From assembly GCA_963717365.1 (NCBI GenBank), contig OY970327.1, positions 651,599-715,598 on the forward strand: 64,000 nt of DNA, in the 5' to 3' direction. The position numbers and the translations under genes are program-made. Below, one piece after another: positions 24,809 through 63,660 of this stretch. The notes below the pieces were generated by a model. The model did not search any database. It saw only the letters and a list, made by a program, of their open reading frames with translations, and was not told the origin of the DNA. The first letter of the stretch is position 1. Each line of letters begins with the position of its first letter. The DNA comes from Candidatus Saccharimonadia bacterium. GTDB lineage: Bacteria; Patescibacteriota; Saccharimonadia; Saccharimonadales; 2-12-FULL-41-12.

Positions 24809-24878
24809 TTTGTTAGATTTTTGAACTACTTTTGTGTTCGTTATCTGTTTCTTATGTCTGTTAAGAAAGCTTATGCAT

Positions 24879-24931
24879 AGTTTACCTGGTAGCATTACAC
24901 TATGCAAGCCTATTGTGCACATTTTGTACTC
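24879..24931 (-). promoter_or_regulatory. Promoter-like block upstream of G2 (-10 TAAACT, -35 TTGCAT, inverted GAGTACAAAAT element)
   Basis: The minus strand reads GAGTACAAAATgtgcacaataggcTTGCAT-N17-TAAACT, with -10 at complement 24879-24884 and -35 at complement 24902-24907. The leader ...CGAACACAAAAGTAGTTCAAAAATCTAACAAA-ATG has no Shine-Dalgarno. Confidence 0.4.
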
Positions 24932-25347: not shown

Positions 25348-25356
25348 ATACATAAA

Positions 25357-25469
25357 ACGGCACCGTGCTATCTTCCCAGGGTTAAAACCCAAGTATTGTA
25401 ACCGCTGCGAGGCTTAACTGCTGTGTTCGGGATGGGAACAGGTGTGACCCTCACGCTATGGGCACCGAT
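25357..25469 (-). rRNA. rrf: 5S rRNA
   Basis: The reverse complement reads AUCGGUGCCCAUAGCGUGAGGGUCACACCUGUUCCCAUCCCGAACACAGCAGUUAAGCCUCGCAGCGGUUACAAUACUUGGGUUUUAACCCUGGGAAGAUAGCACGGUGCCG. It has the conserved CCGAAC and GUUAAGC motifs. Helix I (CGGUGCC / GGUGCCG) closes with two G-U pairs. Confidence 0.9.
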
Positions 25470-25567: not shown

Positions 25568-26102
25568 TCCGGCCAAAGCATATATCGGTGTCCATACGGA
25601 CGTTTTATGCTGACATTTAATCAATTGTAAATAAACGAATGTTTTACTAGTGTTATGAACTACTCAAATCATTCAGGGTTTACCTAAGCAACGCTTAGAT
25701 TTTTGTCTAAATGACTTAAATAATTGGCCATAATCACCAATAACTAGTCAAATGCACTTTTTTCCTATGAGACGAATCCGCTCCAGCCGCAAGCGGCATT
25801 TTGAAGATTCAACTCATAGGTCATAAAAAGTCAGTGGGGCTATTAGTACGCTTCGGCTGAGCATATTGCTATGCGTACACCTTGCGCCTATCAACCTGAT
25901 CGTCTATCAGGGCCCTCATAGGGAAATCTAATCTTGAGGTTAGTTTCGCGCTTAATATGCTTTCAGCGCTTATCTAGTCCGCACATAGCTACCGGGCAGT
26001 GCCATTGGTATGACAACCCGTACACCAGCGGTGCGTTCACCCCGGTCCTCTCGTACTAGGGGCAAATTCTCTCAAATTTCCTGACGTCCACAGCGGATAT
26101 AA

Positions 26103-26173
<71 letters not shown>

Positions 26174-26187
26174 AAGATGCTTCACCT

Positions 26188-26222
<35 letters not shown>

Positions 26223-26507
26223 AGCGCCGTCTATGTGAACTATTGGGCGCTATAAGCCTGTTATCCCTGGCGTAACTTTTATCCGTTTGCGCTGTCGATC
26301 CCACGTTCATATGTATAAATACATGGACAGCGGATCACTTACTCCTACTTTCGTACCTGATTGGATTGTATTCCTCACAGTCAAGCTGGCTTATGCGTAT
26401 GCACTATCACTACGATTTCCATCCGTAGTTAGCCAACCTTTGAACGCCTCCGCTACTCTTTAGGAGGCAACCGCCCCAGTTAAACTACCCACCAGACACG
26501 GTCCGGA

Positions 26508-26570
26508 AACCAGAAGAGATTTTCGAAATATAGCGCAAAAAATGCGTTTTCAAAAACCTTTTGTGGTTTC
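26508..26570 (-). other. Small helix expansion in 23S (about 40 nt longer than the E. coli counterpart as I recall it)
   Basis: ggaaaccagaagagattttcgaaatatagcgcaaaaaatgcgttttcaaaaaccttttgtggtttcc is a long hairpin (GGAAACCA/TGGTTTCC). It sits where E. coli has a short helix between CCAGACAC and GGGTGGTATTTCA. Confidence 0.5.
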
Positions 26571-27012
26571 CGTAAGAATAAAACTACAACAAGGGTGGTA
26601 TTTCACTGGCGACTCCACCTGGACTAGCGTCCAGGCTTCAAAGTCTCCCACCTATTCTACACATGTTATAGCTCGATTCAATGTCAAGCTGTAGTAAAGC
26701 TGCACAGGGTCTTTTCGTCCTGCTGCGGACAGACGGCATCTTTACCGTCAATGCACTTTCACCGAGCTCTTCGTCGAGACAGTGCCCAAATCATTACTCC
26801 ATTCGTGCGGGTCAGAACTTACCTGACAAGGAATTTCGCTACCTTAGGACGGTTATAGTTACCGCCGCCGTTCACCGGGGCTTCAGTTCGCACCGTGAAG
26901 CACTCCCCTTAACCTTCCGGCACCGGGCAGGAGTCAGCCCCTATACATCCACTTTCGTGTTAGCAGAGACCTGTGTTTTTGGTAAACAGTTGCTTGGGCG
27001 CCTTAGCTGCGG

Positions 27013-27410
27013 CCCCGTCACATTATCTACCATGATAACGCGCATATTAGGGGTCAGCTTTCTATTTGATTTGATACAAAGTATCTCGACATTAACTCGT
27101 AAATAGATCCTACAAAATCCATACCATTGTATATACAGCGGCATAGAAATCATAGTCTCTTAAGATGCGGTTCAGAGAAGTTAAAAACTCTAAATTCGCA
27201 AATTTTTGTTCTTGCCGGCTTTAGTACAGTTGTTTTTGTTGCTATACCTGTGTTTCATTAAATTTTAATGAAGTCGAGGTATAGTACTCGAAACCTTATG
27301 TAGTAAAAGCTTAGAAAACTGGCTAATATGTCACGTGCTGTCAGGTTTCGCAAGCGAAAACTGGATATTTGGCTTGCAAGGCAAGCCACATGATAAACAC
27401 TGTGACGGGG
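27013..27410 (-). other. 23S insertion 1 (about 360 nt extra): stem-bounded expansion/intervening sequence in a variable helix upstream of the CCCGAAGTTACGG block
   Basis: It is bounded by ccccgtcac (27013-27021) and gtgacgggg (27402-27410). The interior is AT-rich with several local hairpins (ggcttgc-aag-gcaagcc at 27371-27387; gtttcgc..gcgaaaac). It has no ORF with a convincing product. It contains module copy b. Confidence 0.7.
27241..27288. repeat. Copy b of the 48-nt near-palindromic module (inverted relative to copies a and c), inside 23S insertion 1
   Basis: Sequence gctatacctgtgtttcattaaattttaatgaagtcgaggtatagtact. Its reverse complement matches copy c at 45 of 48 positions. Confidence 0.85.
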
Positions 27411-28603
27411 CAGACCTTATCCCGAAGTTACGGTCGCTGTATTGCCGAGTTCCTTGACGAAGAATCACTCGTACACCTTGGTCTACTCGACCTGAGCACC
27501 TGTGTCGGTTTGCGGTACGGATAGCGTAGTCCACGCGTTTCGTTGCTTTTCTGGTCAGCTCTGTTACCGGAATTCGATTCCAGAGGAACCGTTTCATTCG
27601 TAGGTATTTCTCCTACTTAGACGGGTATAACCATGAACCCGCTCCGGCTAATAAGCCGCGCACACGAAACAAAACTACACTAGTACGGGAATATTAACCC
27701 GTTGTCCATCGCCTACGCTACGCGCCTCGGCTTAGGACCGACTAACCCTGGGACGATTATCGTGGCCCAGGAAACCTTGCTCTTTCGGTGGGCAGGATTC
27801 TCACCTGCCTTATGGTTACTCATTCCAACATTCTCACTTCCTCACGCTCCACCGGACCTCGCGATCCGACTTCAACGCAGAGAGGAACGCTCCTCTACCG
27901 CTCATATAAATATGAACCCATATCTTCGGTACTATGCTTTAGCCCCGTTACATTTTCCGCGCAAGATCTCTTGATGAGTGAGCTGTTACGCACTCTTTAA
28001 ATGAATGGCTGCTTCTAAGCCAACATCCTCATTGTTTAAGAAATCTCACCTCGTTTCCCACTGAGCATAGATTTGGGGACCTTAGATGATGGTCTGGGCT
28101 GTTTCCCTTTCGAGCGCCGATCTTAGCACCGACGTTCTAACTGCAGCGATTCCACAGATGGTATTCGTAGTTTATCAAGGGTGGGTACGCTTACGCGCCC
28201 CAGTCCGAAACAGAGCTCTACCCCCACCTGCTACCACGCCACGCTAGCCCTAAAGCTATTTCGAGGAGAACCAGCTATCTCCAGGTTCGATTGGCATTTC
28301 ACCGCTAACCACAGGTCATCCGAGAGTGTTGCAATACTCGACGGTTCGGTCCTCCACGACGTTTTACCGTCGCTTCAACCTGCCCATGGTTAGGTCACCT
28401 GGTTTCGGGTCTACTAATACACACTATATCGCCCTATTCAGGCTCGCTTTCACTACGCGTCCGTCAAATGACTTACGCTTGCGTGTATCAGTAACTCGTT
28501 GGATCGTTCTACAAAAAGCACCCCGTCACCCCTTGCTGGGCTCCGAGTCCTTGTACGCACATAATTTCAGGTTCTATTTCACTCCCCTTCCGGGGTTCTT
28601 TTA

Positions 28604-28634
<31 letters not shown>

Positions 28635-28811
28635 ATCGTAAGATATATTTAGCCTTAGGAGGTGGTCCTCCCAGATTCAAACAGGGTTTCTCGTGCCCCG
28701 TCCTACTCAACAAAACAATAATAAGGTTAGCAACGCTTAACATACCGGGCTTTCACCGTCTTTGGCCAGTCTTTCCAAACTGTTCTGCTCGCATTGCTGA
28801 TTTCTTACCTT

Positions 28812-29082
28812 ATGCAAGATGATGGTAGATCTTGCTGCCAACACGGAACACTGTGTTTTAAGTACTATACCTCGACTTCATTAAAATTTAATGAAACGTT
28901 GGTATAGCTGCGAAAACATGTATCGGCTTGTGGCCGACTCAGTGCTCTGTACTGGTTTTTTGTAATGTTACAACCCCTTTTAGATATTCGTCTACCAACT
29001 TATTTGCCGCCGTTGCCAGCTGCCCTCGCAATCTGTAAACAGATTGGTCAAACAACAAGCTGACAGGCAAAAACCTAAAAAG
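28812..29082 (-). other. 23S insertion 2 (about 250-270 nt extra) in domain I
   Basis: It lies between ...ctgttctgctcgcattgctgatttc and gtttgggctattccagtttcgctcgccactac, where E. coli has only about 20 nt as I recall it. It contains the hairpin gcaagat..atcttgc (28814-28835) and module copy c. Confidence 0.65.
28861..28908. repeat. Copy c of the 48-nt near-palindromic module, inside 23S insertion 2
   Basis: Sequence agtactatacctcgacttcattaaaatttaatgaaacgttggtatagc. The arms pair ctatacc/ggtatag and ttcattaaa/tttaatgaa around a 5x5 internal loop. Confidence 0.85.
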
Positions 29083-29750
29083 TTTGGGCTATTCCAGTTT
29101 CGCTCGCCACTACTCCCGGAATCATTGTTTATTTTCTCTTCCTCTGGGTACTAAGATGTTTCAGTTCCCCAGGTTACCGCTGCCTTGCCTATATATTCAG
29201 CAAAGAGTGATTAGACATGACTCTAACCGGGTTTCCCCATTCGGACATCTTCGGTTCAAAGTTTGATTGGCAACTCCCCGAAGCTTATCGCAGCCTTCTA
29301 CGTCCTTCATCGGTATCTTACGTCCAGGCATCCATTTTGTGCGCTTGAGTAACTTTTTATGAAAGTTAAATGAGACAAAACCTTGGGTTTTTTCTCATCG
29401 CTGCGCTGCTCTTTTTCCTAAGAAGAAAAGCTTATCTCGAAATAAATTCGAGATCGCTTTGATGAAATATGCCTTTGGCTTCTCATTTTGCATTTGACTA
29501 GTTATCGGTAATTACCAGCGAATTTCATTTTACTGAAACCTGCTAAATAACGTTTGCGATAACGATGTCGTCTATTTACTAATGTCAGTCCAAATTTTTA
29601 AGTTGCAAAACTCTAATTCCTTTAAGACAAACAGAGGTAAAACCACCCCATAATTGTTTGTCGGAACTCAAGTTTACGCTTGGGGGTTTGTTCGCTATGG
29701 CTACTGAGCCCGGCGAAACCTCACGGCCTAAACTTGAGGGTAACTTGACT

Positions 29751-45601: not shown

Positions 45602-48600
45602 TTATTCAGCGATAAAGTAGTCGTAGCGGTATTCCGTATTCGGCGCCGGCGTACCCTTGGCATTGAACATGACGTCGGTAGCCGTAGCATTGCCCTTATA
45701 GTAGCTAAGGCCAGCCGCCGAATCATTGGACGGGCTTAGCACTACCTTCGGCGCCTTGGAGTAAGCTTTGCTGAATAGTATCTTAGCCAGCTCGCCGGCT
45801 GTAGGCGCCGATCCGGTACGGATAATGATCGTACCGGCGGTATCATTGCCATCTATTATGACAGCCGCCCCTTTACCGCTGGCCCCAAGGACTTGGCTGG
45901 TTGGAGTATCACCGACGGTTATAATGTGGCCTTCCACTATTATATTGGCTTTGAACACGGCATTGCTGGTTACAGTTAAGGAATTAACCGTGGCTGCACC
46001 GGTTACCGTAAGATTTTGAATAGATGCCCCACCAGAGACATTAATGTTCGCGAAACTGGTATTGTTAACCTGCTGCTGCAAGGTTAGGATCTGCTTCTGC
46101 TGGGCTTGGATGGCAGCGGCCAGGTACGGCGTCAGGCCGGCGTATGATACAGAGTAGTAACCTTCGGCGTCCTGCTGTACAAGATCTGGGAAATTATTAA
46201 TGAATTCTTGGGCTATTACACCAGTATGGGCCCGGTCGGAGGAATTTTCGGACAGCATCCGGTAATTTACTACGTTGATGCCTAGTATTTTATTGAGCAT
46301 ATCTTCGCTGGAAGTAGCCGATAAGTCTTTCTTTAGTCTCTGGTCGGAGGTACAGGTAATACCGCCTGCTGTAGTTGGGTTAACCGTACAAGTACCGCCG
46401 GAATTTTGGAAACGGGCCACTGAAGTATCTGCTGTGGTACCGCTGCCAACGTGCAGCAAATACCCGGGGGCACTGTTTGCTATGCCAACCCGCCCATTCT
46501 CGCCAATCACAATTCTCTCAACTACAACGTTAGAAACCGGATCATAGAGTGCCACGCTGAACCGGCCGCCAACTTCATTGACGCCTACATTGTCCGCATT
46601 TAAGTTAATGCTGCCGACTGCCCTGTAGGCGCCACCGACGTATCCATAACCATACATACGAGCTATTAAGTCATTTCCCTGGATATCTGTTGGAGAGGCA
46701 GTAGTGCCGCGTGCTTTATGGAATCTAAGCTCCGACGAAAGGTCGTCGGATGAGGCTCTGCCTAATAGCACCGAGGATTCTGTATAGTTATCACCTTGGA
46801 TATGAAGTCTCAGCGACGGTGCTGTTGTACCAAGCCCAATACTCTTGGTTACGGAGTTGGCACTAAAGAATTCCGTGCCGGCGCCGTTTTGTATACGGAA
46901 GAAGTTGGGAGCATCGAGGCCAGCGCCAGATTTAAATATAATGTCTTTAAGCGTAGAAGTAGTGGCGATAGTTGCCGGTGAACCAGATAAGTCATAAGCA
47001 GCTTGAAGATCGCCGCCGCCGCCACCACCGCCACTACTGCCACCAACTTTGGTCATGGAGAAATAAAGTGGTTGAGAGACGGAGTTAGCGGCTACAGTTT
47101 CGCTGAGACCTGTTGAAGAAGCCATAACTTCTACGTAATCATTCGCGTTCAGGTAATAAGTAGTCGTTGTTGTCATTGAGCCTGAGGACTGACTATCCAA
47201 CGAATCTTTTGATATGTAGGTAGTTGTGCCGTTGAGCCTAATCTGTAAGTTTCTGTCTTCATTACCATCACTGAATGTAACTCCAGCGGAAATCACATAG
47301 GTACCAGCGACCGGCGCGGTAAGGCGAGAGGTGTTGCTTGAAGTAGAATGGAGATTATTAGTATCGTATGTTTCTGTGTTGAAAACCAAAGCTACGAGAG
47401 TAGAGTTCACTGATTGGCTGGCATTATGTGTTACCCGCGCGCTGGCATCGGCATTGCTTACGCATGTACCAGCCGTCACTATACCACCGCTGATAGTAGC
47501 CCCCTGCAAAGCTTCCCCTGCAGCGCAAGTCGCGGATATGCCCGAAACCCCGTTGGCTTGATAACCACCGACAGAGTTAATGGTACCGATAGCTTCAAAA
47601 CTGTCATCAGTTTTTAGCAAATTGCCCGCTGCTGCCCGATAGAGATTAGTGTCTGGTGTACCCGAGCCACCTGAAGCGCTCCAACCAATTTGATTTGTCG
47701 GGCCCAAAACGAACACACCCGAGGTATTAAATCGTGCGTTTTCAACAGTCCCTCCATTCGACTTAAACAGTATCTGGTCATTCGTAGCACCAGAAATAAG
47801 TTGTAAGTAGCCAGTACTTTGCAAAATGCCTCCGCTAGGAAGCAGTATATTGTTTGCTTCGAAGTTACCATCGGTTTTTAGGGTGCCAGCTCCTGATCTA
47901 TAAAGGTTAGTGTCTTGGGCGTTGCCGAAATAAATTGTGGGTAAACCGGGTGTAGGAATATTATTTTGAAGTGATATTTGAGCAGTTGTTCCTTGATACG
48001 AAACAATGCTATTTCCTGCAGTAAAAGTGGTGTCCGTTCTTAAGGTACTACCAGCTGAACGATACAAATTAGTATCCCCGCCAATAGTTATTCCTGAGCT
48101 CTGCCCGCCTGAGTCAGCGATCTGGATGGCTGTTTTGCCTGTGGCGTTGGCATTAATGATTCCGTTGAATGTCTTAATACCACCAAAAATCTGAGTGCCA
48201 CTAGTATTTACCAACCCAGGTGCGCTGGCAGTGGCGCTTTGCAGGATTAAGTTGTTACTACTAATTGTCGCGCCTTGGGCACCGGAACCATTACTGTCGA
48301 AGGTCCCGATAGCGTTTACGCCACTGCCACAACTGCCCCAGATAGGAGCAGTTGAGACACCTTGTGAGATTAGGCATGAGCCTATGGCTACGGCGGCCCT
48401 GCGGGCAAGTGAAGTTGTGGTATTGGCATACAGAAGATCGCCTATAGCATAGGTAGTATGACCGGTACCTCCTACGGTTGCTATGACCGTGCCACTACTG
48501 ATGCTTGAGCCATTTAGTGCTGTTAAATTAGTGCCGACACCGCTGAAGTTACCAGCAGTAACAGTACCGCTAACGTTAATGTGGCCTGTCTGTGGAGATC

Positions 48601-51600
48601 CGGTGGTAGGTTGCAACGAAACACATGCGCCGCAAGTACCTGAGCCTGGAGCGCTCAGGTTAATAGTGCCGGCACCATTAGTTATGACCACTGTCGAGTC
48701 ATTTGAAGTAAGGTTAGCGGCGGTATAATTAGTGCCATTGCCTATAAGAAGCTGGCCGTTGGTAGGAGTTGTAGTAATACCTGTGCCGCCGCGACCCACA
48801 AGGAGAATGCCGCTGTTAATATCACCAGCGTCTAGATTAGTCAGGTTGCTACCATTACCCTGAAAGAATCCGGCAATAATAGTCCCGGAAACATTAATGT
48901 GGCCGGTCTGAGCAGTATCCGGAGTGGCAGCTTTCAGAGCTACACAGGCGGCGCAAGTGCCGGCACCAGGTACAGTAAGGTCGATTGTGCCGGCACCGTT
49001 AGTGATCGTAACGCTGGAGTTAGAGGATGTCAGGTTAGCCGAAGCATAACCGGTACCATTACCAATAAGCAGCTTACCATTTGTTGGCACCGTAGCAATA
49101 CCGGTACCACCATACGCAACCCCTACAAGACCACTGTTAACGTTGGTACCGTTTAAGTTGGTAATATTGACACCGCTTAGGGCGGGGAATGCGCTAGCAG
49201 CAGTTGTTTGGATGAGTTGGCTAACACCGTTAAAGGTGTTGCCTTGCTTAGTGACAACAGCATCTAGGGTAACCGCTCCGACTGAAACATCGAAGTCAGC
49301 AGTCGCAAAACTAGCGATACCCTTTATAGTAGTTGTAGCATCAATAATAGTAATAGCCGAACCGGTAGTAAGTGCGCCGTTGAACGTTAATGATCCGCTT
49401 GCCAAGACAGAACCGCCGGCAGAGCCGGTTATACCGGTCACACCACCACCCACACCGGTACAAGTTCCCCAACTTGGTGCTGCACTTGTGGTAGCCAATA
49501 AACACTGTCCAGTAGTACCAGCCCCTGTAACGCCCAAGGCACTTGTTCCATTACCAAACAGAACGCCGTTCGTCGTAAACGTTCCGGCGCCGGTACCGCC
49601 GCGAGCAACAGTTAAGGAGCCGGCCGTAAAGAAGTTGGCGGCATCGGCATGACTAACGTTTTGTAATACCCCGGAACTATTTATCCGAGTTGTTCCACCG
49701 GCTTGAAGCGCAGTACTAGCGTTGAATGTACCAGCTGCTGTTACGGTTGTGCCTGATTCAGTCAAAATTGAGTTACCTATGGTGGCGCCCGTGCCGGTGT
49801 ACTTAGTGATAGTACCTGCGGTACCAGAGCCGGTGATGCCCCCGCCCGCGCCGGCGCAGTTGCCCGTAGACAGACAGAAGTTAGCGTTGCCGCCAACATC
49901 AGGCACCGTATAAACACGTCCTGCAGCTGAGGTGCCAGTTATACGGAAGTTATTGGTAGCCGTGCCGCCAACATACAGATCGCGGAACGGCTTGGCTGCT
50001 GAACCTAAGTCAATGCTGGCGGTGGCGGGTAGCAAGCTGGTATTGATTGCTACGTTTGCTAAATTGTCTAGCTCAATAGTGGCCAAATCTGGGTCGCTGC
50101 CGCCTCCGCCACAGAAGAATCCATACGTACAAACCGTGCTGTCATCAATTTCTATTGTTATGCTTCCTGCCCCATTGGTGATAATAATTCCAGCGCCTTG
50201 TGTTAAGGTAGCCGCAGTTGGCGCGCCAGTGCCGTCACCAATCAGTAATTGTCCGTTTGTTAGCACGCTGCTGGCAGTAATGGCGCCGGTGCCGTTACCA
50301 AACAAAATACCGCCGGAAGTAAGCGTGGTAGCGCCGGTGCCGCCCCTATCAACCATAAGTGTGCCAGTAGTACCTGAGCCAATAATCAAGCCGGTAGCAT
50401 CCACCAGGTTAAACGCCGGAGTTAAGTCGCTAGCGCCAAGGGAAACGCTTACGCCGCCGAAGTTAACGGCGCTGCTTACCAAGTCTCCGTTTGCTATTGT
50501 GCCGTCTGTAATCTCTCCCGATTCAATAGTCTGGCCTAGTTTTGTAACATTAGACCCTAAGCTAACCGCGCCAGCCGTGACGCTGAAGTCAGTACTGCTA
50601 AAGCTGGCAATACCCTTAGTGGTAGTCGTAGCGTTGTTAATAGTAATAGCAGAACTGGTTGTAGCCGCGTCATTAAATGTTATTGCCCCTGCCGCGGCAA
50701 CAGAGCCGCCGGCAGTACCAGTGATGCTGTTAACAGCGCCTGAACCTGTACAGTTGCCCCACGTTGGTGCCAACCCGGTGTTGCCTAATAGGCACTGCCC
50801 GGTGGCTCCAGCGGCGGTAGCGGTAATAGCGCTAGTACCGTTGCCTAACAATACGCCGTTTGCGCCAAGGGTCGCGGCGCCGGTACCGCCCTTGTTCACA
50901 TTAAGCGTACCGCTTAAGTTATTGATGGCTATGTTTGCTTCAACCACATCTAGGGTTGGGTTGCCGGCTACGCCGTTGCCGTTTGTTACCCCAAGCTTGC
51001 TAGAGCCAGCCGTTATGGTGCGGCCGGTAAAGGTATCAGCTGCAGTTTGGACAATTAATCCGTTCGTATTGTAAGCAGACAGTGATGTAAGGGTACTGTC
51101 GGCAGCTTGCTTACCGGTAAATTGGGTCTGGATATTGCTGCTAACTCCATCCAGGGCTGCCAGCTCGGTACTTTGAAGCGTTACGCCGCCAACTGTTATG
51201 GCGTTTGTTCCAAGCGCCAAGGCAGTAGCGTTTGCAAAGGTAACTGTTTCGTTGAATGTTTTGGCACCAGCAAAGGTTTGCGTGCCGGTGCTGACAAGGC
51301 CGGCAAAGCCGGCATCAGCCGTCTGCATAAATATATTGCTGCCGCTGATAAAGGCGCCGTCAGCGGCTTTAACTCCGCCGTTACCAGTATCAATTGTACC
51401 AACGGTAGTTACGCCAGTGCCGCCGGGCTGGCAAGAACCCCAGATAATAGTCGTGCCGTTCGAAGTCAAACACTCGCCAGGAGCCCCTCGTCCCAAACGG
51501 GTAGAGTTAGTACCGTTGTGGTAAAGCAGGTCGCCGTTGGTAGTCAGTTGCGAGATGTTATTAATAGCAGCCTGCGAAGTAGTAGCATTTGTACCGCCGT

Positions 51601-54600
51601 TAGCAATTGGCAATGTACCGGTTACTTCACTGCCGGCCGTACTTAAGGTAACGCTAGTCCCCAGCGTAGTCTCCAGTACCCCGGCGTTAAAGGCCAGGCC
51701 GGTGCCGGTCAGGTCGCTAAAGGCTTCGCCGTTAATAGTAATGACTTGGCCACTGGTGACAGTAAGGCCAGTAGCGAACACAGCCGTACCGTTAAACGTC
51801 TTAGCGCCGGCAAAGGTCTGGACGCCGGTGGTGACGGTACCGGCGACGGTGGCGCTGGCGTTAGATACCGTTAAGGTAACAGCATCAGGTGTAGCACCGG
51901 TGTTTAGGCTGAAGGTAGTACCAGCCACGGTACCAGTAGCAGTGGTATCAATAAAGTCGGCGTCAGTTGCAGCGGCGCCGTTAACGGATACCGAGTCACC
52001 AACACCTGCTCCGCCGGCATCGGTGCCGCAGACTAGGTTGCCGGAAGCATCGGTATCGATGCTGTCACAGTTAGCTAGGCCACCAACCCGGAGGTTAGCT
52101 GCACCAGCACCGCTGTTATCTAGGAACAAGGTAGTGTTGGCGCTATCTACTAGATCAAAGGTGTAAGTACCGGCGGCAGTACGGCGGATGGTAGTATCGG
52201 ATCCATCAATAAGTAGAATGTTACTACCGGAGTCAATTGTTAGGGCAACGACGCTGCTCTGGATCAGTGGCGTGGTGACACTGGTACCGAAGGTTGGGTT
52301 GGCGACGGTGGCTATGGTTAAGGTACCGTTAGCACCGCCGTCGGTGAAGGCGGCGATGTTAGTACCATTAGTCAGGACCCGTTCGTTGGTTAGGTTGCTA
52401 TCCAGGCCAAGTGTTAAGTAACTGGCGTTGTTGGGAGCAGCTGCACCGGCACCAGAGCCAACACAGTTACCGGTGGAGAGACAGACGTTGGCCGATGCAC
52501 CGGTAAAGTCTGGGAACAGATACGTCTTGTCTCCAGCCAGGTCAGCTACGTCAAAGGTACCGTAGAAGCTTGGGGTGCCGCCATTCTCCAGCATACGCAG
52601 TTCAGATGAGCTGTTGTTAAGTACTAGGTCAAAGGCACCACCCTGCATGTAGTCGGCAGTAAGGTTACCCAGGGCAATTGCCCGGGAGGTACCTTCACCG
52701 GCGCTGCCGCCGATGCCAATGCCGTTGCCGGCAGTGACGTCGCCGACGTAGTTGCCAGTCGTCTGGGTACCGAGTGCTACGGCATTGTTAGCAATATCTA
52801 CGCCGGCTACCTGGCCGTCGGTTATCTCGGTGGAGTCGATGCTCGTCCCCAGTGTAGTCTCCAGCTGTCCAGCATTAAAGCTTAGGCCGGTGCCGGTCAG
52901 GTCGCTAAAGGCTTCGCCGTTAATAGTAATGACTTGGCCACTGGTGACAGTAAGGCCAGTAGCGAACACAGCCGTACCGTTAAACGTCTTAGCGCCGGCA
53001 AAGGTCTGGACGCCGGTGGTGACGGTACCGGCGACGGTGGCGCTGGCGTTAGATACCGTTAAGGTAACAGCATCAGGTGTAGCACCGGTGTTTAGGCTGA
53101 AGGTAGTACCAGCCACGGTACCAGTAGCAGTGGTATCAATAAAGTCGGCGTCAGTTGCAGCGGCGCCGTTAACGGATACCGAGTCACCAACACCTGCTCC
53201 GCCGGCATCGGTGCCGCAGACTAGGTTGCCGGAAGCATCGGTATCGATGCTGTCACAGTTAGCTAGGCCACCAACCCGGAGGTTAGCTGCACCAGCACCG
53301 CTGTTATCTAGGAACAAGGTAGTGTTGGCGCTATCTACTAGATCAAAGGTGTAAGTACCGGCGGCAGTACGGCGGATGGTAGTATCGGATCCATCAATAA
53401 GTAGAATGTTACTACCGGAGTCAATTGTTAGGGCAACGACGCTGCTCTGGATCAGTGGCGTGGTGACACTGGTACCGAAGGTTGGGTTGGCGACGGTGGC
53501 TATGGTTAAGGTACCGTTAGCACCGCCGTCGGTGAAGGCGGCGATGTTAGTACCATTAGTCAGGACCCGTTCGTTGGTTAGGTTGCTATCCAGGCCAAGT
53601 GTTAAGTAACTGGCGTTGTTGGGAGCAGCTGCACCGGCACCAGAGCCAACACAGTTACCGGTGGAGAGACAGACGTTGGCCGATGCACCGGTAAAGTCTG
53701 GGAACAGATACGTCTTGTCTCCAGCCAGGTCAGCTACGTCAAAGGTACCGTAGAAGCTTGGGGTGCCGCCATTCTCCAGCATACGCAGTTCAGATGAGCT
53801 GTTGTTAAGTACTAGGTCAAAGGCACCACCCTGCATGTAGTCGGCAGTAAGGTTACCCAGGGCAATTGCCCGGGAGGTACCTTCACCGGCGCTGCCGCCG
53901 ATGCCAATGCCGTTGCCGGCAGTGACGTCGCCGACGTAGTTGCCAGTCGTCTGGGTACCGAGTGCTACGGCATTGTTAGCAATATCTACGCCGGCTACCT
54001 GGCCGTCGGTTATCTCGGTGGAGTCGATGCTCGTCCCCAGTGTAGTCTCCAGCTGTCCAGCATTAAAGCTTAGGCCGGTGCCGGTCAGGTCGCTAAAGGC
54101 TTCGCCGTTAATAGTAATGACTTGGCCACTGGTGACAGTAAGGCCAGTAGCGAACACAGCCGTACCGTTAAACGTCTTAGCGCCGGCAAAGGTCTGGACG
54201 CCGGTGGTGACGGTACCGGCGACGGTGGCGCTGGCGTTAGATACCGTTAAGGTAACAGCATCAGGTGTAGCACCGGTGTTTAGGCTGAAGGTAGTACCAG
54301 CCACGGTACCAGTAGCAGTGGTATCAATAAAGTCGGCGTCAGTTGCAGCGGCGCCGTTAACGGATACCGAGTCACCAACACCTGCTCCGCCGGCATCGGT
54401 GCCGCAGACTAGGTTGCCGGAAGCATCGGTATCGATGCTGTCACAGTTAGCTAGGCCACCAACCCGGAGGTTAGCTGCACCAGCACCGCTGTTATCTAGG
54501 AACAAGGTAGTGTTGGCGCTATCTACTAGATCAAAGGTGTAAGTACCGGCGGCAGTACGGCGGATGGTAGTATCGGATCCATCAATAAGTAGAATGTTAC

Positions 54601-57600
54601 TACCGGAGTCAATTGTTAGGGCAACGACGCTGCTCTGGATCAGTGGCGTGGTGACACTGGTACCGAAGGTTGGGTTGGCGACGGTGGCTATGGTTAAGGT
54701 ACCGTTAGCACCGCCGTCGGTGAAGGCGGCGATGTTAGTACCATTAGTCAGGACCCGTTCGTTGGTTAGGTTGCTATCCAGGCCAAGTGTTAAGTAACTG
54801 GCGTTGTTGGGAGCAGCTGCACCGGCACCAGAGCCAACACAGTTACCGGTGGAGAGACAGACGTTGGCCGATGCACCGGTAAAGTCTGGGAACAGATACG
54901 TCTTGTCTCCAGCCAGGTCAGCTACGTCAAAGGTACCGTAGAAGCTTGGGGTGCCGCCATTCTCCAGCATACGCAGTTCAGATGAGCTGTTGTTAAGTAC
55001 TAGGTCAAAGGCACCACCCTGCATGTAGTCGGCAGTAAGGTTACCCAGGGCAATTGCCCGGGAGGTACCTTCACCGGCGCTGCCGCCGATGCCAATGCCG
55101 TTGCCGGCAGTGACGTCGCCGACGTAGTTGCCAGTCGTCTGGGTACCGAGTGCTACGGCATTGTTAGCAATATCTACGCCGGCTACCTGGCCGTCGGTTA
55201 TCTCGGTGGAGTCGATGCTCGTCCCCAGTGTAGTCTCCAGCTGTCCAGCATTAAAGCTTAGGCCGGTGCCGGTCAGGTCGCTAAAGGCTTCGCCGTTAAT
55301 AGTAATGACTTGGCCACTGGTGACAGTAAGGCCAGTAGCGAACACAGCCGTACCGTTAAACGTCTTAGCGCCGGCAAAGGTCTGGACGCCGGTGGTGACG
55401 GTACCGGCGACGGTGGCGCTGGCGTTAGATACCGTTAAGGTAACAGCATCAGGTGTAGCACCGGTGTTTAGGCTGAAGGTAGTACCAGCCACGGTACCAG
55501 TAGCAGTGGTATCAATAAAGTCGGCGTCAGTTGCAGCGGCGCCGTTAACGGATACCGAGTCACCAACACCTGCTCCGCCGGCATCGGTGCCGCAGACTAG
55601 GTTGCCGGAAGCATCGGTATCGATGCTGTCACAGTTAGCTAGGCCACCAACCCGGAGGTTAGCTGCACCAGCACCGCTGTTATCTAGGAACAAGGTAGTG
55701 TTGGCGCTATCTACTAGATCAAAGGTGTAAGTACCGGCGGCAGTACGGCGGATGGTAGTATCGGATCCATCAATAAGTAGAATGTTACTACCGGAGTCAA
55801 TTGTTAGGGCAACGACGCTGCTCTGGATCAGTGGCGTGGTGACACTGGTACCGAAGGTTGGGTTGGCGACGGTGGCTATGGTTAAGGTACCGTTAGCACC
55901 GCCGTCGGTGAAGGCGGCGATGTTAGTACCATTAGTCAGGACCCGTTCGTTGGTTAGGTTGCTATCCAGGCCAAGTGTTAAGTAACTGGCGTTGTTGGGA
56001 GCAGCTGCACCGGCACCAGAGCCAACACAGTTACCGGTGGAGAGACAGACGTTGGCCGATGCACCGGTAAAGTCTGGGAACAGATACGTCTTGTCTCCAG
56101 CCAGGTCAGCTACGTCAAAGGTACCGTAGAAGCTTGGGGTGCCGCCATTCTCCAGCATACGCAGTTCAGATGAGCTGTTGTTAAGTACTAGGTCAAAGGC
56201 ACCACCCTGCATGTAGTCGGCAGTAAGGTTACCCAGGGCAATTGCCCGGGAGGTACCTTCACCGGCGCTGCCGCCGATGCCAATGCCGTTGCCGGCAGTG
56301 ACGTCGCCGACGTAGTTGCCAGTCGTCTGGGTACCGAGTGCTACGGCATTGTTAGCAATATCTACGCCGGCTACCTGGCCGTCGGTTATCTCGGTGGAGT
56401 CGATCGACTGACCAAGTTTTGAAACAGCAGCATTCAGGCTAACTGCGCCGCCTGTAACATCGAAGTCAGCAGCAGTAAAGGAAGCGATACCTTTATTAGT
56501 GGTAGTAGCATCATCGATAGTAATAACGGCACCAGTGCCGGTAGCGTTATTAATAGTAAGCGCGCCGGTTAAGCCCTCTAATGAAGCCACCCCTCCAGCG
56601 CCAGTACAAGTGCCGAAAGTTGGAGCACTACCAGTGTTAGCCAACAGACACTGGCCGGTAGTACCGGCAGCTGTCGCGCCAATTGCACTAGTAGCATTGC
56701 CGAATAAGACACCATTACTAGCAAATGTGCCAGCGCCGGTGCCACCGCGAGCAACTGCCACCGTACCAGTAGTTAGTTCAGAAGCGTTTAAGTCAGTGAT
56801 ACCGGATCCATTACCTTGCAAATTAGTTGCAACCAATGTGCCGCCAACAGTGATGGTAGCACCCGATTCAGTAATAATAGAGTCGACAATGTTTTGGGAC
56901 GCATCAAACTTAGCGATCTTGCCAGGCGTGCCAGCGCCGGTAATCGAAGATCCAGCCCCGCCGTCATCAGCCGAACAAATCAGATTGCCGGAAGCGTCAG
57001 TTGTTAAAGCACCGCCATTACCAGCAGTACTACAGTTGTAGGCGCCCAGGTTAAGCAAGCCGGTAGCCCCTATAGTAACCCGGGTAACTCCGCCGGTTTC
57101 CAGGTTAAAAGCAAACGCGTCGTTAGTACCAAGCGTGAGAGCCGCAGTGAAAGTATTGCCGCCCTGCAGGACGTCACCATTGCCGCCGGTACCAGCACAG
57201 TTACCGGTGTTGCGGCAAACAGTACTATCAACTGCAACCGTCGGGCTGGTACCCTCGCCGGCTGCACCAGTAACGGTAATCCCATCTCCAGCCGTAGTGA
57301 AGGCTTGGTAGTTCCCCGTCGTCTGGCTGCCAAGTGCTACGGCGTCACTAGCGATGTCGATGCCGGCGATGGTGCCGTTAACAATTTCGGTGGTATCAAT
57401 AGTAGTGCCTAAAGTAGTTTCCAGTACGCCGCTGGTTACCTGAAGTCCGGTACCGACTAAGTTAGATATGGCTACTCCATTAATAGTAAGAGCTTGGCCA
57501 GTCGTGACAGTAAGGCCGGTTGCGAACACGGCGGTGCCATTAAACGTCTTAGCGCCGGCAAAGGTCTGGACGCCGGTGGTGACGGTACCGGCTTCAGTAG

Positions 57601-60600
57601 CAGAAGCGTTTGTAACACTTAAGGATACGGCGTCAGGGGAAGCACCGGTATTAAGAGTCCAGCTCAGGCCAGCCGTGGTACCGGAAACGGCTGTATCAAT
57701 AAAGTTAGCATCAGAAGCACCAGCCCCGTTAACGGAAATGCTGTCACCAACGCCTGCGCCACCGGCGTCAGCACCACAGACTAGGTTACCGGAAGCGTCG
57801 GTATCGATGGTGTCACAGTTGGCTAGGCCGCCAACTCGGAGGTTAGCTGCACCAGCACCGCTGTTATCTAGGAACAATGTAGTGTTAGCGCTATCGCTCA
57901 AGTCAAAGGTGTAGGTGCCGGCGGCAGTACGGCGGATGGTGGTATCGGTACCGTCAATTAATAAGATGTTGGAGCCGGAGTCAATCGTCAGGGCGGCAGC
58001 ACTCTGCAGTAGCGGTGTAGTCACGCTGGTACCAAAGGTTGGGTTAGCAATAGTACTAATAGTAAGCGTGCCGTTGGCACCGCCATCTGTGAAGGCGGCA
58101 ATGTTAGTACCATTAGTGAGAACCCGTTCGGCAGTTAAGCTTGGATCAAGGCCTAGTGTTAGATAAGACGCGTTGTTTGGAGCGGCCGCACCAGCGCCGC
58201 TGCCAACACAGTTGCCAGTACTCAGACAAACGTCGGCGGTAGCGCCGCCGAAGGTTGGGAATACATACGTCTTGTCGCTATCCAGGTCAGCTACGTCAAA
58301 GCTGCCGTAGAAGCTGGCACCAGCGCCGTTCTCAAGAATACGCAGTTCAGACGAACTGTTAGCTAGAACCAGGTCAAAGGCACCGCCCTGCATGTAGTCG
58401 GCCGTTAGGTTGCCCAGAGCGATGGCCCGGGAGGTACCTTCGCCAGCCGCACCGCCGATGCCAATACCATTGCCGGCAGTGACGTCACCGACGTAATTCC
58501 CCGTCGTCTGGCTGCCAAGTGCTACGGCGTCACTAGCGATGTCGATGCCGGCTATGGTGCCGTTAACAATTTCGGTGGTATCAATAGTAGTGCCTAAAGT
58601 AGTTTCCAGTACGCCGCTGGTTACCTGAAGTCCGGTACCGACTAAGTTAGATATGGCTACTCCATTAATAGTAAGAGCTTGGCCAGTCGTGACAGTAAGG
58701 CCGGTTGCGAACACGGCGGTGCCATTAAACGTCTTAGCGCCGGCAAAGGTCTGGACGCCGGTGGTGACGGTACCGGCTTCAGTAGCAGAAGCGTTTGTAA
58801 CACTTAAGGATACGGCGTCAGGGGAAGCACCGGTATTAAGAGTCCAGCTCAGGCCAGCCGTGGTACCGGAAACGGCTGTATCAATAAAGTTAGCATCAGA
58901 AGCACCAGCCCCGTTAACGGAAATGCTGTCACCAACGCCTGCGCCACCGGCGTCAGCACCACAGACTAGGTTACCGGAAGCGTCGGTATCGATGGTGTCA
59001 CAGTTGGCTAGGCCGCCAACTCGGAGGTTAGCTGCACCAGCACCGCTGTTATCTAGGAACAATGTAGTGTTAGCGCTATCGCTCAAGTCAAAGGTGTAGG
59101 TGCCGGCGGCAGTACGGCGGATGGTGGTATCGGTACCGTCAATTAATAAGATGTTGGAGCCGGAGTCAATCGTCAGGGCGGCAGCACTCTGCAGTAGCGG
59201 TGTAGTCACGCTGGTACCAAAGGTTGGGTTAGCAATAGTACTAATAGTAAGCGTGCCGTTGGCACCGCCATCTGTGAAGGCGGCAATGTTAGTACCATTA
59301 GTGAGAACCCGTTCGGCAGTTAAGCTTGGATCAAGGCCAAGTGTTAGATAAGACGCGTTGTTGGGGGCAGCCGCGCCGGCGCCGGATCCGACGCAGTTGC
59401 CAGTACTCAGACAAACGTCGGCGGTAGCGCCGCCGAAGGTTGGGAATACATACGTCTTGTCGCTATCCAGGTCAGCTACGTCAAAGCTGCCGTAGAAGCT
59501 GGCACCAGCGCCGTTCTCAAGAATACGCAGTTCAGACGAACTGTTAGCTAGAACCAGGTCAAAGGCACCGCCCTGCATGTAGTCGGCTGTCAGGTTACCC
59601 AGAGCGATGGCCCGGGAGGTACCTTCGCCAGCCGCACCGCCGATGCCAATACCATTGCCGGCAGTGACGTCACCGACGTAGTTCCCCGTCGTCTGGCTGC
59701 CAAGTGCTACGGCGTCATTGGCGATGTCGATGCCGGCTATGGTGCCGTCGGTGATCTCGGTAGATTCAATTGATTGGCCAAGCTTCGTAACGTTAACGTT
59801 CAAACTAACTGCGCCGGCAACAACAGTAAAGTCAGTAGTCGCAAAGGAAGCAATGCCTTTCGCAGTAGTAGTAGCATCGTCAATAGTGATAATGCTGCCG
59901 CTACCAGTGGCGTTGTTAATAGTAAGGACGCCGGTCAGACCATCCAAGGATGCCACGCCCCCAGAACCAGGACAAACGCCAAAGCTGGGAGCACTGCCCG
60001 TAGTAGCTAATAGACACTGGCCGGTGGTGCCAGCTGCTGTCGAGTCAATCGCACTAGTACCGTTACCAAACAGAACGCCGTTAGTAGTAAAGGTACCAGC
60101 GCCAGTGCCGCCGCGGGCAACGGTAACAGTACCAGTAGTAAGATTAGATCCGTTTAAGTCAGTGATGCCGGAACCATTGCCCTGCAGGTTAGTTGCAACC
60201 AATGTGCCACCAACAGTTACAGTAATACCCGATTCAGTAATAATAGAGTTGACTATATTCTGCGAAGCATCGAACTTAGCAATACTGCCAGCCGTGCCGG
60301 TACCGGTAATGGCGGCAGCTGCGCCGTTGTCATCGTTCTGGCAGATCAGGTTGCCTGACGCGTCAGTTGTCAGCACGCCCCCATTGCCAAAAATACTACA
60401 GTTGTAGGCACCTAAGTTAAGTAAACCGGTGTTACCAATCGTAACGCGGGTGATGCCAGCAGTCTCCAAGTTAAGAGAGAAGTTATCATTTGTACCAAGA
60501 GTCAGCGTCGAGCCAAAGCTATTACCTCCTTGTAGAACATTGCCATTGCCCCCAACCCCAGCACAGTTGCCAGTTGTTCGACACACCGTTGTATCTACTG

Positions 60601-62089
60601 CAACATTATCAGCGTTTACCGTAATTCCATCGCCTGCGCCGATATCAAGAGTAGCGACTCCGCCCAAGCTAACTACACCGCCATTGAACAACCCTCCGCC
60701 TGCTGTAACTGTCAGGCTAGAGTTAGTTAAATCTATGTTGGCTATTGAGCCATCAGAAACTTTACTGCCATCAACCGAATTAGACTCCAGCTCAGCCATA
60801 CCAATAGTTTGACCCAGCAATGAAACGCTGGAATCAAGCCTAAGGTTGCTCAAAGTACCGGCATTAAGATTACTGGCACTCTGGTAATACGAGCCAGTCT
60901 GGCCGTTTAACTGGATAGCGTTAACATTTGTCACACCAGAGCCATCACCAGTGAAGCTAGCAGCCGTAGTGGCGCCGGTAATTGCTGTATCGCCCGTTAC
61001 CGCTAAATCCCCGTTTACAGTAATCACGGTGGCTGACTGGGTCAAAATTGAATCAGCAATTATCTGGGAAGCCGTGAATACCGGTATAGTACCGCTGGTT
61101 CCGGTACCGTTAATGGCACCAGCCGCTCCACCGTCATCATCGCTACAAATCACTTGCCCACTAGCATTGGCAGTCAGTGCACCACCATTCAGGTTAGTCG
61201 TACAATTTAAGCTGGAGAGAGTCAGAGTACTGGCAAACGTTACTGCCCCACTAGCGTTTATGCTGCCAATGGTAATACCAGCGAAGGTTGGACTTGAGGT
61301 TACATTAATATCTTGGGGTGTTGTCAGGGTAAAGGTACCGGCACTGGCGTTAACGCTGATCTGGTTAGAAGTCCCTTGTATCAACAAGCCGCCGCTCTGA
61401 TTGTTGATAGAGCTTACCTTTGGGTCTCCGGCGGAGGTATCACTAATTCTGATGTTACCGCCGTTATTGGTGATCAACAAGTTAGCCGTGCCGGCTGTAA
61501 TGCTCTGGATGCCAGCGATCTGGGCGCTTGGGGCTGGTATTAGCCCCCTCAGAGTCTGAAATTGTGCCTGTGTGACATACTCACAGTTATTGGCGTCAAG
61601 ACATATCACTCCCGAAGCATTTGGAAGCGTATAAGTCTGGCTCTTGTTGTTTAGGCTAGAAACAAAGGTACCACTCACAACCTTAAGGTTGCCGCGAATC
61701 GCAACATCTCCATTGACTAATACTGATTCTTTGGCACCCTGTAACTCCGAAGGTAAGTTAATATCTGAGCCTTGCTGGATAGTTACCTCTTGGGTAGGAA
61801 TAGCGCTTCGTAAGTTGCCATCTTCGGTTAGATTATTATTTCTAGTCTGATAGGCTATAGTCGCGCCTGTAAGGATCAGGACAACGGCGGTAATAATACA
61901 CGAAACAATGGTAGCTTTTTGGCGGTAAAACGGCGTGCGCACAACGCTGGGCAGTACATACTCAGGACTAGTTGCATCTACAGGGAGCAAAACAGGGCTG
62001 TTAAGGTCCACTTGCGGGTGCCCAAAATCAACACCGGCAGAATTTTGACGGCTTTCTTGGGGTTGATTTGGATTTTTATTTGGAAACAT
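45602..62089 (-). CDS. Giant surface fibre protein G4 (5495 aa): short cytoplasmic N-terminus, TM anchor, modular fibre with 395/396-aa tandem repeats, C1q-like domain, S74-like domain, C-terminal module
   Basis: Uninterrupted 16.5-kb ORF starting at ATG 62089. The TM helix is [22 protein letters not shown], about 55 aa from the N-terminus. The GGTG motif ([19 protein letters not shown]) and the Cys-pair motif (NC....NGG.LT.DASGNL.C..DDGG) recur many times. Confidence 0.85.
46070..46360 (-). other. S74-like chaperone/autoproteolysis domain of G4
   Basis: Sequence [96 protein letters not shown]. The Ser-Asp codons are at complement 46343-46348. Confidence 0.65.
47050..47440 (-). other. C1q/TNF-like jelly-roll domain in G4, followed by a poly-Gly linker
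   Basis: Sequence [140 protein letters not shown]. The pattern (F.....YD....F......F.AP..G.Y......V........L..NG........Y.L...D.V.V) is typical of C1q-like tips of BclA and phage fibres. Confidence 0.5.
51657..56405 (-). repeat. 1188-bp (396-aa) in-frame tandem repeat, 4.0 copies (type B), apparently identical
   Basis: Shadow ORFs at 52188, 53376, 54564 and 55752, and at 52752, 53940 and 55128, give identical peptides with period 1188. The unit starts [36 protein letters not shown]... and ends ...[12 protein letters not shown]. Confidence 0.9.
57311..59750 (-). repeat. 1185-bp (395-aa) in-frame tandem repeat, about 2.06 copies (type A), homologous to type B
   Basis: Shadow ORF pairs 57468/58653 and 57915/59100 are identical with period 1185. 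The unit starts [36 protein letters not shown]... Each array is preceded in the protein by a homologous X module of about 300 aa (coded at 56405-57310 and about 59750-60650). Confidence 0.9.
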
Positions 62090-63288: not shown

Positions 63289-63365
63289 TGGTGGGCGATG
63301 AGGGATTCGAACCTCCGACCTCGTCATTATCAGTGACGCGCTCTAACCAACTGAGCTAATCGCCC
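63289..63365 (-). tRNA. tRNA-Ile (anticodon GAU), CCA encoded
   Basis: The reverse complement folds as GGGCGAT TA GCTC AGTTGGTTA GAGC G CGTCA CTGATAA TGACG AGGTC GGAGG TTCGAAT CCCTC ATCGCCC ACCA. This is a cloverleaf with one A-C mismatch in the T stem. Confidence 0.85.
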
Positions 63366-63570
63366 GTATAGTGATATACGGCTAACTTGTTAATTTACTG
63401 CGCTCAGTTGGCGAGAGCATCTATCGCTTACTCTGCAGCTGCGCTGCGCCAACCGAGCTAATCGCCCGTATAGTGATATACGGCTAACTTGTTAATTTAC
63501 TGCGCTCAGTTGGCGAGAGCACACTTTTTTAAGCTTGCAGCGAAGCTGCGCCAACCGAGCTAGTCGCCTG
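63347..63570 (-). repeat. 102-bp tandem repeat (2.2 units) duplicating the tRNA-Ile 5' acceptor/D-arm fragment plus its leader
   Basis: ccaacYgagctaRtcgccYg occurs at 63347, 63449 and 63551 (period 102). tatagtgatatacggctaacttgttaatttactgcgctcagttggcgagagca occurs at 63367 and 63469, identical in both. The second and third units are truncated tRNA-like 5' halves (GGGCGATTAGCTCGGTTGGCGCAG... and GGCGACTAGCTCGGTTGGCGCAG...). Confidence 0.8.
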
Positions 63571-63583
63571 CATTACTAAATTA

Positions 63584-63660
63584 TGGTGGAGCGTCGGGGA
63601 CTCGAACCCCGGACCCCCTGCTTGCAAAGCAGGTGCTCTAGCCAACTGAGCTAACGCCCC
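63584..63660 (-). tRNA. tRNA-Ala (anticodon UGC), CCA encoded
   Basis: The reverse complement folds as GGGGCGT TA GCTC AGTTGGCTA GAGC A CCTGC TTTGCAA GCAGG GGGTC CGGGG TTCGAGT CCCCG ACGCTCC ACCA. This is a perfect cloverleaf with the G3:U70 alanine identity pair. Confidence 0.92.

Follow-up and report, generated by a model that had tools for sequence, protein, structure and literature searches.

The DNA analysed here is a 64,000-nt window of Candidatus Saccharimonadia bacterium (GCA_963717365.1, contig OY970327.1, positions 651,599-715,598 of the forward strand). Four giant open reading frames (ORFs) of 2,636-5,495 aa fill about 48 of its 64 kb. This study concerns the longest of them, G4, one uninterrupted ORF on the minus strand that covers the whole of a tandem-repeat feature described in an earlier note on this DNA. 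The coding sequence and its features, from the N- to the C-terminus of the protein, are:

45602..62089, minus strand: G4 coding sequence, a putative giant surface fibre protein of 5,495 aa, as a single ORF
61844..61918, minus strand: hydrophobic segment, aa 58-82, the predicted N-terminal membrane anchor (Kyte-Doolittle scan)
~59771..60634, minus strand: X1 module, aa 486-773 (protein similarity to X2)
57312..59748, minus strand: A array, 2.06 copies of a 1,185-bp (395-aa) unit (comparison at a lag of 1,185)
56405..57310, minus strand: X2 module, aa 1594-1895
51653..56404, minus strand: B array, 4.0 copies of a 1,188-bp (396-aa) unit (comparison at a lag of 1,188)
50450..50932, minus strand: partial X-like module, ~aa 3720-3880, matching the C-terminal half of either X module at 56-59% identity (part of the direct-repeat families D10 and D11)
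49160..49642, minus strand: partial X-like module, ~aa 4150-4310, 45-57% identical to X1 and X2 (families D10 and D11)
47045..47443, minus strand: C1q/TNF-like jelly-roll knob, ~aa 4883-5015 (AlphaFold and Foldseek)
46178..46348, minus strand: Peptidase_S74 domain, aa 5248-5304, beginning S-D-Q-R-L-K (Pfam PF13884)
45605..46057, minus strand: conserved C-terminal tail domain, ~aa 5345-5495, after a short coiled coil (common to relatives)

The arrays were measured by comparing the sequence with itself at fixed lags (1,188 nt for B and 1,185 nt for A). The module order from the N- to the C-terminus, namely X1, two A units, X2 and four B units, agrees with the earlier note, which had also placed an X module of about 300 aa before each array. 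The B array shows a single exact run (51696-55216, 3,521 nt) at its lag, and positions 51696-56404 comprise 4,709 bp or 3.96 copies with 0 mismatches. Its final copy diverges only over the last ~43 nt (51653-51695), resulting in two amino acid changes, and protein copies 1-3 are identical. The claim of four identical B units is thus sustained up to this terminal stretch. For the A array, the claimed copy number of 2.06 was recovered, whereas the claimed identity of the copies was not: they are 98.5% identical over their full length, and of their 18 differences 16 are synonymous. Eleven of these differences cluster in 55 bp (58154-58208 versus 59339-59393). This patch is synonymous and includes a TCC/AGC serine codon switch. 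No donor for it was found within the window, and at 8 of 36 positions the B copies agree with neither A version; the patch could stem from conversion by the sequence of another strain or have been left over when the copies were homogenised. Both arrays together amount to 7.15 kb, matching the 7.2 kb given before, and span aa 781-3465. The comparison revealed no substantial divergence inside either array, i.e. none over the 4,709 bp of B and 1.5% in A, and four exact 1.19-kb copies are not attributable to chance. The unit boundaries coincide with a module boundary that recurs across the protein family ('...TTLGTS' followed by 'IDSTEITDG...'). Both partial X-like modules lie downstream of the B array and add to those of the earlier note. 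Three of the four B units also carry an antisense, TTG-initiated ORF of 200 aa on the plus strand (52752-53354, 53940-54542 and 55128-55730), most likely a mechanical by-product of repeat and composition and not a gene.

The A and B units were described as clear homologs with many substitutions, and their identities of 76.6% in DNA and 84% in protein concur with this description. The proteins of X1 and X2 are 78% identical (72-87% in 100-aa chunks compared with aa 1608-1895). Synonymous (dS) and non-synonymous (dN) substitution rates separate two levels of divergence. Between A and B, dS is 0.97, dN 0.124 and dN/dS 0.13; between X1 and X2 the respective values are 1.46, 0.148 and 0.10. Between the two A copies they fall to 0.046, 0.005 and 0.10, and among the B copies dS is 0 over the exact run, leaving dN/dS undefined, with the end of copy 4 as the sole difference. 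Hence, the block of X and unit is an old duplication under purifying selection, and the amplification or homogenisation inside each array is very recent, a pattern of old divergence between arrays and little within them, where the earlier note had seen none.

In a Kyte-Doolittle scan of G4, aa 58-82 is the only region with 19-residue windows above 1.6. Glycine, threonine, alanine and serine together account for 51% of the residues, and cysteines occur in about 30 close pairs distributed along the whole protein. The hydrophobic helix, the composition and the cysteine pairs fit an extracytoplasmic protein, and G4 is predicted to be attached to the cell surface by a single N-terminal transmembrane helix with approximately 5,400 residues beyond it. 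Peptidase_S74 is the sole Pfam domain above threshold in G4 (46.9 bits versus a cut-off of 22). Members of this family are intramolecular chaperones of endosialidases and tail fibres that fold trimers. The domain opens with S5248-D-Q-R-L-K5253, which we take to correspond to the Ser-x4-Lys catalytic dyad of endosialidase. Another Peptidase_S74 domain is present in G1, a second giant ORF of the window.

The segment of ~aa 4883-5015 yielded a confident AlphaFold model (predicted local distance difference test, pLDDT, 82; predicted template modelling score, pTM, 0.76). In Foldseek searches against the PDB this knob matched the central spike knob of phage phi812 (E 2.4e-9) as well as many C1q, TNF and Caprin-2 C1q domains (probability 1.0, TM-score ~0.85 normalised to the target), and it also resembles the binding domain of a cyanophage short fibre. 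Pfam assigned 4 of 20 knob homologues to BclA_C and 3 of 20 to C1q. In at least 10 smaller homologues the knob domain constitutes the C-terminal head. The solved C1q/TNF and phage spike-knob structures among these matches are known as homotrimers. As the knob and the Peptidase_S74 domain are both known from homotrimers, we infer that G4 forms a homotrimeric fibre. The C-terminal tail is common to the relatives P0118, P0091, P0164, P0093, P0076, P0071 and P0133 and, judged by reading the sequence, to P0068.

An exhaustive HMMER search with one B unit among 1.84 billion representative proteins retrieved 770 proteins at E <= 0.001, 59 of them with E <= 1e-30. Giant proteins predominate among the 770, and the best hit is 51% identical. 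A word-index search with the same unit gave only short partial matches of at most 50% coverage; the giant relatives required the exhaustive search. None of the homologues contains the whole 395-aa unit at high identity. Sub-modules of it recur in varying combinations and also separately, and the 395/396-aa unit appears to be a composite of several smaller fibre sub-modules. The N-terminal anchor and the following domain are conserved in P0065, P0067, P0068, P0073 and P0074. In a collection with one genome per species, the N-terminal domain was present at 10 loci, nine of which bear the name Saccharibacteria, Saccharimonadales or Patescibacteria in their titles. The title of the tenth (L006) reads only 'uncultured bacterium'; its contig is also that of locus L008.

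Of 93 large homologues, 5 contain tandem arrays of at least 95% identity, the units measuring 74-415 aa, and the near-perfect arrays of several relatives have units of 0.75-1.25 kb. Among the relatives examined, exact arrays were restricted to two loci of one long-read genome, MFD01275.bin.1.89, with 5.5 copies of a 921-nt unit, 4.1 of an 864-nt unit and 2.6 of a 747-nt unit. They are situated in two adjacent genes of the G4 family (L006, 11493-16350, and L008, 12568-18600, on CAWIAU010000001.1), of which the second corresponds to P0068. At none of the remaining eight genome loci did the same scan detect a tandem array; in L004, repeated stretches reached at most ~600 nt, which is under one period. 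Collapse or fragmentation in short-read assemblies would explain this absence, and the frequency of arrays is hence a lower bound.

A positional homologue of G4 is encoded on a contig full of frameshifts (L080; ENA ERZ25039476 contig_21985) that matches the window at 46891-51076 and 60507-62089. Its upstream gene is 49% identical to that of the window, and its N-terminal region is 57% identical to that of G4. The N-terminal and X region is followed by a different duplication of 1,276 nt and then directly by the equivalent of G4 aa 3657-5062, with identities of 75-93% in protein and 84.6% in DNA. No A or B unit was found in L080, so the arrays of G4 are lineage-specific and the stalk of L080 is shorter by about 2,500 residues. 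The sharp jump in identity from 57% to 75-93% suggests that the distal segment was recently exchanged between lineages.

Family searches covered the N-terminus, X2 together with one B unit, and the C-terminal third of G4. X2 with the B unit had no match among Pfam, NCBIfam or PHROG families, and the stalk modules likewise resembled no known triple beta-helix family. A B_lectin hit was disregarded as sub-threshold (19.6 bits versus a cut-off of 32.4). In a tblastn search, X2 and the B unit matched none of 50,697 phage records, a result that speaks against the stalk having come from a prophage. The C-terminal third of G4 had two weak hits to PHROG tail-fibre families. Searches against PDB sequences were marginal, the TP901-1 receptor-binding protein matching at E 0.008 over unit positions 295-359, which include '[12 protein letters not shown]'; a match to chorismate synthase was regarded as noise. 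The relative P0068 passes the Pfam threshold for BppL_N. A Peptidase_G2-like cleavage module, suspected by reading in relatives such as P0068, obtained no support from Pfam and was dropped.

The window also encodes a ROK kinase and the following ribosomal RNA (rRNA) and transfer RNA (tRNA) genes:

25355-25469: 5S rRNA
25822-29359, minus strand: 23S rRNA, 3,538 nt compared with 2,925 positions in the model
63289-63660, same strand as the 23S rRNA gene: tRNA region with tRNA-Ile and tRNA-Ala

These genes place the window in a cellular context; its DNA is cellular and not of phage origin. The neighbours of G4 are rRNA genes, tRNA genes, the ROK kinase and other giant genes, and no prophage or phage tail fibre gene neighbourhood was found around it. 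Relative to the model, the 23S rRNA gene contains ~600 nt of insertions; a group I or II intron as their cause was rejected, as no Rfam match was obtained at E <= 0.01. No 16S rRNA gene is present within the 64 kb. The tRNA-Ala and tRNA-Ile genes are located 34 kb upstream of the 23S rRNA gene on the same strand, and since G4 and the giant gene G3 separate them from it, the rRNA genes appear unlinked. Upstream of tRNA-Ile, a tandem repeat of 102 bp (63347-63568; 2.2 copies, 88-99% identical) comprises in each copy the first ~19 nt of tRNA-Ile and leader sequence.

The earlier note had compared the two-level pattern of G4 with that of G1 (ORF 2952-10862, minus strand), and this comparison is justified: G1 has a 639-bp (213-aa) tandem array of ~6.7 copies at 5637-9922 with ~98.7% DNA identity. 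The stretch in which that array lies is unusually rich in G+C (0.64, versus 0.46-0.55 in the rest of the window). In the giant gene G2 (11918-24922, minus strand), the first ~150 residues resemble, on reading the sequence, two short DNA-binding motifs of the helix-turn-helix type ('[15 protein letters not shown]' and '[15 protein letters not shown]'). Such motifs are unusual at the head of a giant fibre protein of S74-like type, and the start of G2 may have been annotated too far upstream.

Taken together, G4 is probably a very long, length-variable trimeric surface fibre of a Saccharibacteria-like member of the Patescibacteria, also known as candidate phyla radiation (CPR), with stalk cassettes that are changed by recombination. 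The single N-terminal helix would hold the fibre in the cell membrane with its remaining residues outside, the A and B arrays would form the proximal and middle stalk, and the C1q/TNF-type knob and the Peptidase_S74 chaperone would be placed near the far end. The ancestral block of X and unit would have been duplicated long ago. More recently, the 1.19-kb direct repeats would have undergone unequal homologous recombination or replication slippage, which amplified the unit to two and four copies, and the same process would keep the copies identical. The length of the stalk would then change in steps of one unit and alter the reach of the distal knob, presumably toward the host bacterium of the episymbiont.

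Several points weigh against this interpretation. The trimeric state would follow from two domains, and neither of these is terminal: the knob ends at ~aa 5015 of 5,495 and is followed by 480 residues, and ~190 residues (the short coiled coil and the conserved tail) follow the Peptidase_S74 domain, unlike the classical terminal arrangement, so that either part may form the mature tip. The AlphaFold monomer of one B unit, based on a 25-row alignment, was unusable (pLDDT 56, pTM 0.25), its confidence being too low to support a rod shape or a length for each unit. Scans of genomes and metagenomes for close relatives returned no sequence of the same species (best match 61% over ~124 residues), and copy-number variation within the population is hence a prediction. 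The perfect identity of the B copies could in part derive from consensus polishing of the long-read assembly. A role in host attachment would be argued from the episymbiotic lifestyle of cultured Saccharibacteria and from what is proposed for giant proteins in other CPR bacteria in passages of PMC8080830. Nevertheless, three alternatives each fit the evidence less well than the trimeric, length-variable fibre.

The first is that the arrays are recent segmental duplications without adaptive role, i.e. long direct repeats that expand and contract neutrally, with extra units tolerated and fibre length untuned. The low dS values within the arrays and the purifying selection on the unit sequence are compatible with such drift, as they do not demonstrate selection on copy number, and different relatives amplify different segments without a common unit. 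However, arrays recur at the same proximal-to-middle position of the stalk in several members of the family, they are always in frame and bounded by the natural module boundaries, and a genome estimated at ~1 Mb would pay heavily for the ~48 kb that giant genes occupy in this window. We therefore consider neutral duplication rather unlikely.

Secondly, the arrays might be an artefact of assembly or polishing, with fewer or more copies at the true locus, or with diverged copies that were homogenised by consensus polishing. The copy numbers of two and four rest on a single assembly, and short reads cannot resolve exact tandem copies of 1.19 kb. A short-read assembly from the same organism (ERR12037361) breaks at the edge of an array: its 3,649-bp contig contains the upstream gene together with residues 1-800 of G4 and stops ~57 nt into the A array. 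Such a break in turn indicates the exact start of a repeat, and it confirms the boundary and not the copy number. The reading frame is open throughout the 7.2 kb of repeats, the 18 ordered differences retained between the A copies indicate that the assembler did separate them, and exact arrays exist in independent genomes of the family. An artefact is for these reasons improbable. Finally, that G4 is a monomeric coat, S-layer-like protein or beta-solenoid adhesin, in which the Peptidase_S74 and C1q-like domains were domesticated without a trimerising role, could appeal to the failure of the stalk modules to match any known triple beta-helix family and to the unstructured monomer model of the unit (in itself uninformative), but is very unlikely in view of the homotrimeric structures matched by the knob, the known role of S74 domains in trimer folding and the position of both in the distal part of one chain.

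The closest concept to G4 as a length-variable fibre are the Periscope Proteins (Whelan; for example SasG, Rib and Aap), surface proteins with highly identical tandem repeats in variable number, whose repeat domains of ~50-165 residues are single folds in monomeric rods (review PMC9704523). Similarly, G4 is predicted to be surface-anchored and carries in-frame repeats of 100% (B) and 98.5% (A) DNA identity between the anchor and a distal domain, for which recombinational expansion and contraction is expected. In contrast, the G4 unit of 395-396 aa is two to eight times longer, composite and probably part of a trimer. Furthermore, G4 has an X module ahead of each of two arrays that have diverged from one another, and its predicted anchor is an N-terminal transmembrane helix and neither a cell-wall sorting signal nor an autotransporter. 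For G4, variation of the repeat number between strains is a prediction; its distant homologue L080 has no units altogether.

A second comparison is offered by BclA of the Bacillus anthracis exosporium (Pfam BclA_C, PF18573), which combines an anchored N-terminus, a repetitive stalk with a repeat number that determines how long the filament is, and a C1q-like trimeric knob. G4 shares this succession of anchor, repetitive stalk and C1q-like knob, and homologues of its knob match BclA_C. In BclA the stalk spans a few hundred residues and forms a collagen-like GXX triple helix, whereas G4 contains no collagen family according to Pfam and no GXX run was seen in its translation. Unlike that of BclA, the knob of G4 is internal and followed by the S74 chaperone. 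In phage S74 fibres such as endosialidase and the L-shaped fibre of T5, the chaperone is located at the extreme C-terminus and released after folding. G4 resembles them in its above-threshold S74 domain with a Ser-x4-Lys motif, its weak tail-fibre PHROG hits, its knob similar to those of phage spikes and short fibres and its mosaic distal part. It differs in its location on a bacterial chromosome beside rRNA genes, its predicted membrane anchor, a length four to five times the typical one, the residues that follow S74 and stalk modules without counterpart in the phage records searched.

Clusters of giant surface genes are also described for Apilactobacillus kunkeei (Giant1-5, with beta-solenoid and serine-rich repeat protein (SRRP)-like domains) in the abstract and section outline of PMC12863079, and giant membrane proteins with WD40, TPR and PKD domains for Vampirococcus in keyword passages of PMC8080830. 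As far as these parts of the two sources go, the systems have in common with G4 the consecutive genes for giant extracellular proteins, their large share of a small genome and a proposed function in cell-cell interaction, whereas their domain content is unrelated and perfect arrays at the kb scale are absent from them.

That identical tandem repeats set the length of surface proteins is an established principle, and the gain from G4 therefore concerns scale, architecture and lineage and not the concept. Its novelty consists of an unusually large repeat unit, a two-level super-repeat and a poorly understood lineage. Since exact arrays were seen only in a long-read genome, the content and length of giant genes in CPR genomes may be widely underestimated. 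To our knowledge, the means by which ultra-small episymbionts recognise and reach their hosts are largely unknown beyond type IV pili. A farther-reaching proposal, which we hold to be possible but doubtful, is that giant trimeric surface fibres of Saccharibacteria-type episymbionts evolve like phage tail fibres, with composite kb-scale stalk cassettes amplified and contracted through homologous recombination as a fast length ruler and distal knob segments exchanged between lineages, and would thus constitute an undescribed cellular system of host-range switching. The G4 locus suggests that membrane-anchored giant proteins resembling phage fibres form a family, with stalks that change by whole cassettes of 0.75-1.25 kb and distal parts that appear mosaic. 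If this is true, such genes would be systematically broken or collapsed in short-read genomes and would be candidate determinants of host range.

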